Below, one piece after another: positions 62,545 through 62,583 of a DNA stretch of 64,000 nucleotides. This stretch comes from Escherichia coli (GTDB taxonomy: Bacteria > Pseudomonadota > Gammaproteobacteria > Enterobacterales > Enterobacteriaceae). The stretch lies in the NCBI RefSeq assembly GCF_003334385.1, contig NZ_QOWN01000004.1; one strand, 5' to 3'. The translations under genes were made by a program, and so were the position numbers. Numbering within the stretch: the first letter of the stretch is position 1; every line of letters starts with the position of its first letter. The notes beneath the pieces were generated by a model, which saw nothing but the letters and a program-made list of their open reading frames with translations, had not been told where the DNA came from and did no database searches.

Positions 62545-62583
62545 AATGAATTAAAATTCAATTTATATGGATGATTATTCATT
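62545..62583. promoter_or_regulatory. Tandem ARG boxes (ArgR operator) in the argI promoter
   Basis: aaTGAATtaaaATTCAat (62545-62562) and taTGgATgattATTCAtt (62566-62583), separated by 3 bp, ~30-60 bp upstream of the argI start. Confidence 0.8.

Follow-up and report, generated by a model that had tools for sequence, protein, structure and literature searches.

Within a stretch of Escherichia coli DNA of 64,000 nt, referred to below as the window, two 18-bp sequences resembling ARG boxes stand in tandem ahead of a gene for ornithine carbamoyltransferase. The question that they raise is whether the pair is an operator for ArgR and, if so, which gene it serves. A promoter whose AT-rich sequence happens to look like ARG boxes, a chance or decayed match, and an operator directed at the divergent neighbour would each be a different answer. 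As set out here, the pair at 62545-62583 is almost certainly the argI operator, a known ArgR site of E. coli. That operator is an element already known, real and strongly conserved.

The argI gene and the paired boxes

The gene and its surroundings are placed as follows.

61515-62519, minus strand: argI, anabolic ornithine carbamoyltransferase, a 334-codon ORF with its ATG at 62519-62517; the regulated gene
62520-62680: argI-rraB intergenic region, 161 bp
62525-62530, minus strand: Shine-Dalgarno sequence AGGAGG of argI, read from the sequence, ending 5 nt before the ATG
62681-63097, plus strand: rraB, a 138-codon ORF divergent from argI, start codon at 62681
63143-63646, minus strand: a 167-codon ORF in the last 2.5 kb of the window

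The ORF at 61515-62519 is argI: 333 of 335 aligned positions (334 residues plus the stop) match K-12 ArgI (b4254), 295 of 335 match K-12 ArgF, and the gene order (yjgL, argI, rraB, yjgM, yjgN) is that of K-12 MG1655. The K-12 argI locus has the same gene, neighbours and 25-nt distance from operator to start codon as the window, and its operator (NC_000913.3 4478337-4478375, upstream of b4254) is identical to that of the window in all 39 bases. The sole substitution in the upstream region is in the leader, with T at 62540 in the window and C in K-12; elsewhere the two differ in two ArgI residues and in the interruption of yjgL in the window. More broadly, the 401 bp around the operator were found in 5426 of 5426 complete E. 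coli genomes, and are at least 99% identical in 3591 of them.

In most E. coli genomes the RefSeq name of the ornithine carbamoyltransferase gene next to rraB is ‘argF’. This label is a generic name for ornithine carbamoyltransferase, and the locus next to rraB is argI by position. The true K-12 argF is part of the CP4-6 prophage region, with IS1 flanking it and, unlike argI, without rraB alongside, so that the argF and argI labels are a naming trap for automated comparisons. Beyond the 3′ end of argI, the yjgL-like gene (59810-61459, plus strand) is interrupted by an in-frame stop codon at 60194-60196, which splits this markedly AT-rich region into ORFs 59864-60196 and 60212-61459; the yjgL locus of strain KSC64 is annotated as a pseudogene (‘internal stop’) and K-12 has one intact yjgL CDS. 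The argR gene itself is absent from the 64-kb window, its K-12 copy being at 3384703-3385173.

The operator consists of the following parts.

62545-62562: box 1, the promoter-proximal ARG box, AATGAATTAAAATTCAAT on the plus strand and ATTGAATTTTAATTCATT on the minus strand
62563-62565: inter-box spacer of 3 bp, TTA on the plus strand and TAA on the minus strand
62566-62583: box 2, the promoter-distal ARG box, TATGGATGATTATTCATT on the plus strand and AATGAATAATCATCCATA on the minus strand

Read in the sense of argI it is AATGAATAATCATCCATA TAA ATTGAATTTTAATTCATT, the box centres are 21 bp apart, and the start codon of argI follows 25 nt downstream. The initial annotation had placed two ARG boxes with a 3-bp gap at 62545-62583, which is exact to the base. 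It had also held that both 18-mers fit the ARG-box consensus, the first nearly perfectly, and the counts agree: against WNTGAATWWWWATTCANW, box 1 has no mismatch and box 2 has two, a G for A at 62570 and a G for W at 62573. Both are imperfect palindromes, with 7 of 9 symmetric pairs in box 1 and 6 of 9 in box 2. Matches to WNTGAATWWWWATTCANW with at most two mismatches number 4 in the window, where 0.83 are expected, and in 0 of 100 shuffles were 4 reached. A lone ARG-box-like 18-mer, AATGAATTAAAAATTAGA, is present on the plus strand at 61295-61312, inside the AT-rich yjgL coding region, with 2 mismatches and 14.5 bits; no partner box was found at 21 bp from it, and it is most likely due to chance.

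Matrix scores and conservation across species

For scoring, a matrix was derived from nine K-12 ArgR-regulon promoters, those of carA, artJ, artP, argA, argG, argR, argD, argECBH (argE/argC) and hisJ; argI, argF and the consensus of the initial annotation were kept out of it because circularity was to be avoided. Motif discovery was by a Gibbs sampler with no seed consensus and one 39-bp site per sequence, and its 16 restarts gave similar total scores (297-310 bits). The best solution for the nine promoters was an 18-bp box, 3 bp and a second 18-bp box. In leave-one-out scoring the training operators range from 10 to 39 bits. The site picked in the argR promoter reaches only 10.2 bits and may be something other than the true argR operator; this pick adds slight noise to the matrix, and the conclusion is unaffected.

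With this 39-bp matrix, 62545-62583 scores 34.1 bits and is the top site of the 64-kb window on both strands. The initial annotation had named an ArgR weight-matrix scan as the check on its proposal, and a score below threshold as the outcome that would count against it; the site is clearly not below threshold, being the maximum of the window and falling inside the range of the known operators. Taken singly with an 18-bp palindromic matrix, box 1 (20.8 bits) ranks first and box 2 (16.2 bits) second among 63,983 positions. Dinucleotide shuffles of the window gave a maximum of 25.3 bits (n = 200), and a further 500 window shuffles gave a maximum of 29.3 bits, 34.1 bits being reached in none of them. 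When only the 161-bp, 39% GC argI-rraB intergenic region was shuffled (n = 20,000), the maximum was 24.3 bits and again none reached 34.1.

The second-best locus of the window, at 19.5 bits (a score reached in 9 of 500 window shuffles), is a tandem ARG-box-like pair on the plus strand at 57051-57089, TTTGAATTAAAAGTCAAG GTA TATGCATTTTTATTTGAT, with a 3-bp spacer. It is flanked by pyrL/pyrB and yjgH (pyrB at 55887-56822 and yjgH at 57241-57636, both on the minus strand) and stands some 60-100 bp upstream of a TATAAT hexamer preceding pyrL. Directly adjoining it, at about 57037-57050 on the plus strand, is GCGCAAACGGTTTA, which by inspection resembles the consensus of a PurR box. For the pyrL promoter, overlapping ArgR and PurR sites are on record, with ChIP-chip confirmation (PMC4299497). 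The pair is probably the ArgR site in question, and the PurR-like sequence beside it agrees with that published arrangement of neighbouring sites.

Conservation was followed in loci retrieved independently of the operator, with a degenerate pattern for an ornithine carbamoyltransferase coding motif applied to a collection of species-representative genomes. The scan gave 120 loci, mostly from Enterobacterales of many genera (Citrobacter, Salmonella, Enterobacter, Klebsiella, Kluyvera, Pantoea, Erwinia, Serratia, Yersinia, Pectobacterium, Dickeya, Photorhabdus, Hafnia and Edwardsiella), together with a few from Bacteroidales and other distant groups. Scoring was confined to 98 loci, those whose tblastn identity to ArgI was 70% or more and whose upstream sequence was no shorter than 150 nt. 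A box pair of at least 20 bits is present in 97 of these 98 (median 33.3 bits), and is the best-scoring site of every locus among the matches listed. Its distance to the called start codon is 15-34 nt (median 27) in nearly all 97, four loci whose gene start is beyond the locus end (spurious distances of 953-3209 nt) being left aside. The scored locus that lacks the pair is that of Odoribacter laneus (L092), a member of the Bacteroidales, and in the 14 loci below 70% identity, which are mostly Bacteroidales, no such pair was found, the best scores being -16 to 18.5 bits. As a control, 652 regions ahead of other long ORFs from these loci were scored, and only 2 gave 20 bits or more. The spacer between boxes, which in some ArgR operators is 2 bp instead of 3 bp, is 3 bp in 97 of 97 Enterobacterales loci with the pair. 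The description of the tandem arrangement as typical of ArgR operators is borne out, by these 97 loci and by the other K-12 operators, which have the same 3-bp spacer.

Alignment of 98 distinct upstream regions, with identity measured to the window, gave the following footprint.

62589-62599: upstream flank, mean identity 0.35
62583-62588: TTGCAA, mean identity 0.88
62566-62583: distal box, mean identity 0.78
62563-62565: spacer, mean identity 0.94
62545-62562: proximal box, mean identity 0.88
62531-62544: leader, mean identity 0.39

A conserved island, 62546-62588, with values of 0.78-0.94, is thus bounded by unconserved flanks with values of 0.35 and 0.39. Its near-invariant columns are the TTG of the predicted -35 hexamer considered below, the half-sites of TGAAT/ATTCA type in both boxes, and the T and A of the spacer. 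Giving some bases by the last two digits of their position (T81 being at 62581), the distal box core T81, G80, A78, T77, A72 and C69 is kept in 92-98 of the 98 sequences; the corresponding counts for TGAAT (62560-62556) and ATTCA (62551-62547) in the proximal box are 91-97. The spacer T at 62565 and A at 62564 are kept in 97-98 of 98, and on the minus strand the spacer reads TAA or TAG in nearly all Enterobacterales loci listed.

Overlap with the predicted promoter and the competing readings

The initial annotation had also put the site in the argI promoter, a placement to which position and conservation both lend support, with hexamers and transcription start that are predicted ones.

62583-62588, minus strand: putative -35 hexamer TTGCAA, assigned from conservation, at the upstream edge of the conserved island
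62560-62565, minus strand: putative -10 hexamer TAAATT, assigned from conservation, 17 nt downstream of TTGCAA

The TTG of the -35 is kept in 96-98 of 98 sequences, A84 in 94 and A83 in 86; the -10 bases T65, A64, A63, A62, T61 and T60 are kept in 69-98 of 98. TTGCAA, the 17-nt gap and TAAATT plausibly make up the sigma-70 promoter of argI, an assignment that, like that of the start, draws on conservation, spacing and position. A scan for sigma-70 consensus promoters, with a threshold of 9 matches in 12, called no argI promoter, because the two hexamers have 4 matches in 6 each and together 8 in 12. The only minus-strand hit of that scan, 62757-62729, is inside rraB, and such hits are no more than expected by chance. 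A different -10, TATAAA at 62562-62567, was considered and is less likely, as its spacing to TTGCAA is only 15 nt and as G and T replace its bases at 62567 and 62566 in some 20 of the 98 sequences. Of the two overlapping hexamers, TAAATT has the higher conservation; among the loci listed, those reading ACGGT-TAA at this alternative are mostly from Pantoea and Erwinia.

On the favoured placement, the 17-nt gap separating the two hexamers is occupied by the distal box, which shares one further base, the last, with the -35. The -10 hexamer would be split between the spacer, as its first half, and the proximal box, whose first three bases would complete it; the proximal box would also take in the predicted start near 62553 and roughly 8 transcribed bases. 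If so, the -10 hexamer instead of ArgR could be responsible for part of the conservation seen at the spacer and at 62560-62562.

A 15-codon ORF, MNNHPYKLNFNSLRC, occupies 62535-62582 on the minus strand, its ATG (62582-62580) being in the distal box and in frame with argI, and its TAG at 62537-62535. Since this ATG is upstream of the predicted argI start, it would be outside the transcript of the argI promoter itself. The homologous ATG at K-12 argF, where the leader is 2 nt longer than that of argI, starts the annotated 31-codon argL (‘putative translational regulatory protein’), a small ORF that overlaps the argF start.

Nearer to rraB, the argI-rraB intergenic region has a second conserved island at 62636-62646 (TGTGTGACAAT on the plus strand), with conservation also at 62616-62624. 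Lying some 35-45 nt ahead of the rraB start codon, the island has mostly near-invariant columns in the 98 Enterobacterales sequences and recurs upstream of K-12 argF. In form it resembles an extended -10 element (TG-n-GAcAAT), putatively of the divergent rraB promoter.

Given the overlap of boxes and hexamers, the conserved block might be thought to be a sigma-70 promoter and nothing else, its likeness to ARG boxes a by-product of AT-rich DNA with no repressor involved. The hexamers are indeed inside or beside the boxes, the inter-box spacer is part of the predicted -10, and the intergenic region is AT-rich (39% GC). Sigma-70 promoters, however, have no sequence requirement in the gap between -35 and -10 or downstream of the -10, and the most invariant columns are the palindromic half-sites, including those at 62569-62581 in the gap and 62547-62559 past the -10. 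Together with a score, from a matrix made of other operators, well above the peak for shuffles of that same AT-rich region (34.1 against 24.3 bits, n = 20,000), this leaves a promoter without a repressor very unlikely. That the match might be a chance resemblance, or the decayed and non-functional relic of an operator, is less credible still. Box 2 does depart from the consensus at two positions, and lone box-like 18-mers do arise by chance in the window, that at 61295-61312 being an example. Such a reading has to contend with a site that is the top 39-mer of the window and scores above every shuffle, and with a pair that all 97 Enterobacterales loci retain, its 3-bp spacing unchanged and its distance to the start codon similar; it is effectively refuted by matrix scores, shuffles and conservation.

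Whether the operator acts mainly on the divergent rraB, or on both genes instead of argI alone, is a matter of which promoter it serves. The divergent pairing of argI and rraB in 87 of the 88 loci with enough upstream sequence is compatible with such a role, as is the ~93 bp that, as ChIP-exo suggests, ArgR protects in vivo, beyond the 39-bp motif (PMC4381063), a protection that could extend in the direction of the conserved block at 62636-62646. The rraB start codon is nevertheless about 98 bp away from the nearer end of the boxes, which fall exactly on the predicted argI hexamers, and the K-12 argF copy retains its operator with no rraB adjoining it. We know of no report of arginine control of rraB, and it is highly improbable that rraB is the main target or a joint one. 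An operator of argI from which bound ArgR also dampens the rraB promoter is a proposal suggested by the geometry of the locus, and one to which we would give only a slim chance. If true, such damping of rraB, which encodes an RNase E inhibitor, would tie arginine supply to RNA turnover.

Comparison with other operators and the arginine switch

For the arginine system, ArgR binding, the role of arginine as corepressor and steric exclusion are established, as is the arginine- and argR-dependent repression of E. coli argI. At the operator described here, abundant L-arginine would lead one arginine-bound ArgR hexamer to bind both 18-bp boxes cooperatively. The bound ArgR and RNA polymerase would be unable to share the promoter, because the boxes extend over the predicted start, the -10 hexamer and the gap that separates it from the -35, and synthesis of ornithine carbamoyltransferase would be off. 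A drop in arginine would cause ArgR to depart and argI to be transcribed. Steric exclusion of RNA polymerase in this manner is, with high confidence in view of the layout, the most likely mechanism at argI.

Several aspects of this scheme have precedent. Paired 18-bp boxes with a 3-bp spacer are the canonical design of E. coli ArgR sites (PMC6640053, PMC4381063), and two such boxes bind one arginine-bound ArgR hexamer on one face of the helix (PMC6245113, PMC6640053). Overlap of ARG boxes with RNA polymerase binding sites is described for the arginine regulon (PMC1413537). ArgR and RNA polymerase exclude one another from carAB P2, and the arginine biosynthesis genes have no attenuation control (PMC6245113).

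The operator of K-12 argF, AATGAATAATTACACATA TAA AGTGAATTTTAATTCAAT, is homologous to that of argI and has the same layout (TTGCAA, two boxes and a TAA spacer); 5 of its 39 positions differ, and its score is 35.6 bits, compared with 34.1 at argI. The two-box, 3-bp architecture and the weight matrix are common to argI and to carAB P2, argECBH, argG, artJ, artP, argD, argA and hisJ. Placement relative to the promoter varies among the other E. coli ArgR operators, those of carAB P2, artJ and artP overlapping the -35 only and that of hisJ being further upstream (PMC6640053). The argI operator, by contrast, takes in the interval between the two hexamers, the whole of the -10 and the start site of the promoter predicted here.

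None of the four exact 18-mers turned up in a full-text search of the literature. For arg operators, Charlier et al. 1992 and Tian et al. 1992 reportedly published DNase I footprints and binding affinities. A 1982 paper (Piette et al., EMBO J 1:853), as cited in PMC7004355, described the argF and argI control sites, and argI is unnamed in the ChIP-exo paper (PMC4381063) as far as its main text is concerned.

The value of the finding is in correct annotation only. A small addition is that cross-species conservation favours as the -10 hexamer TAAATT, to which the spacer and the start of the proximal box contribute three bases each, and this choice could account for the near-invariance of the 3-bp spacer (TAA or TAG). 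For the organism, the argI operator is a switch that stops synthesis of ornithine carbamoyltransferase when arginine is plentiful, and a classic example of a repressor and its operator.
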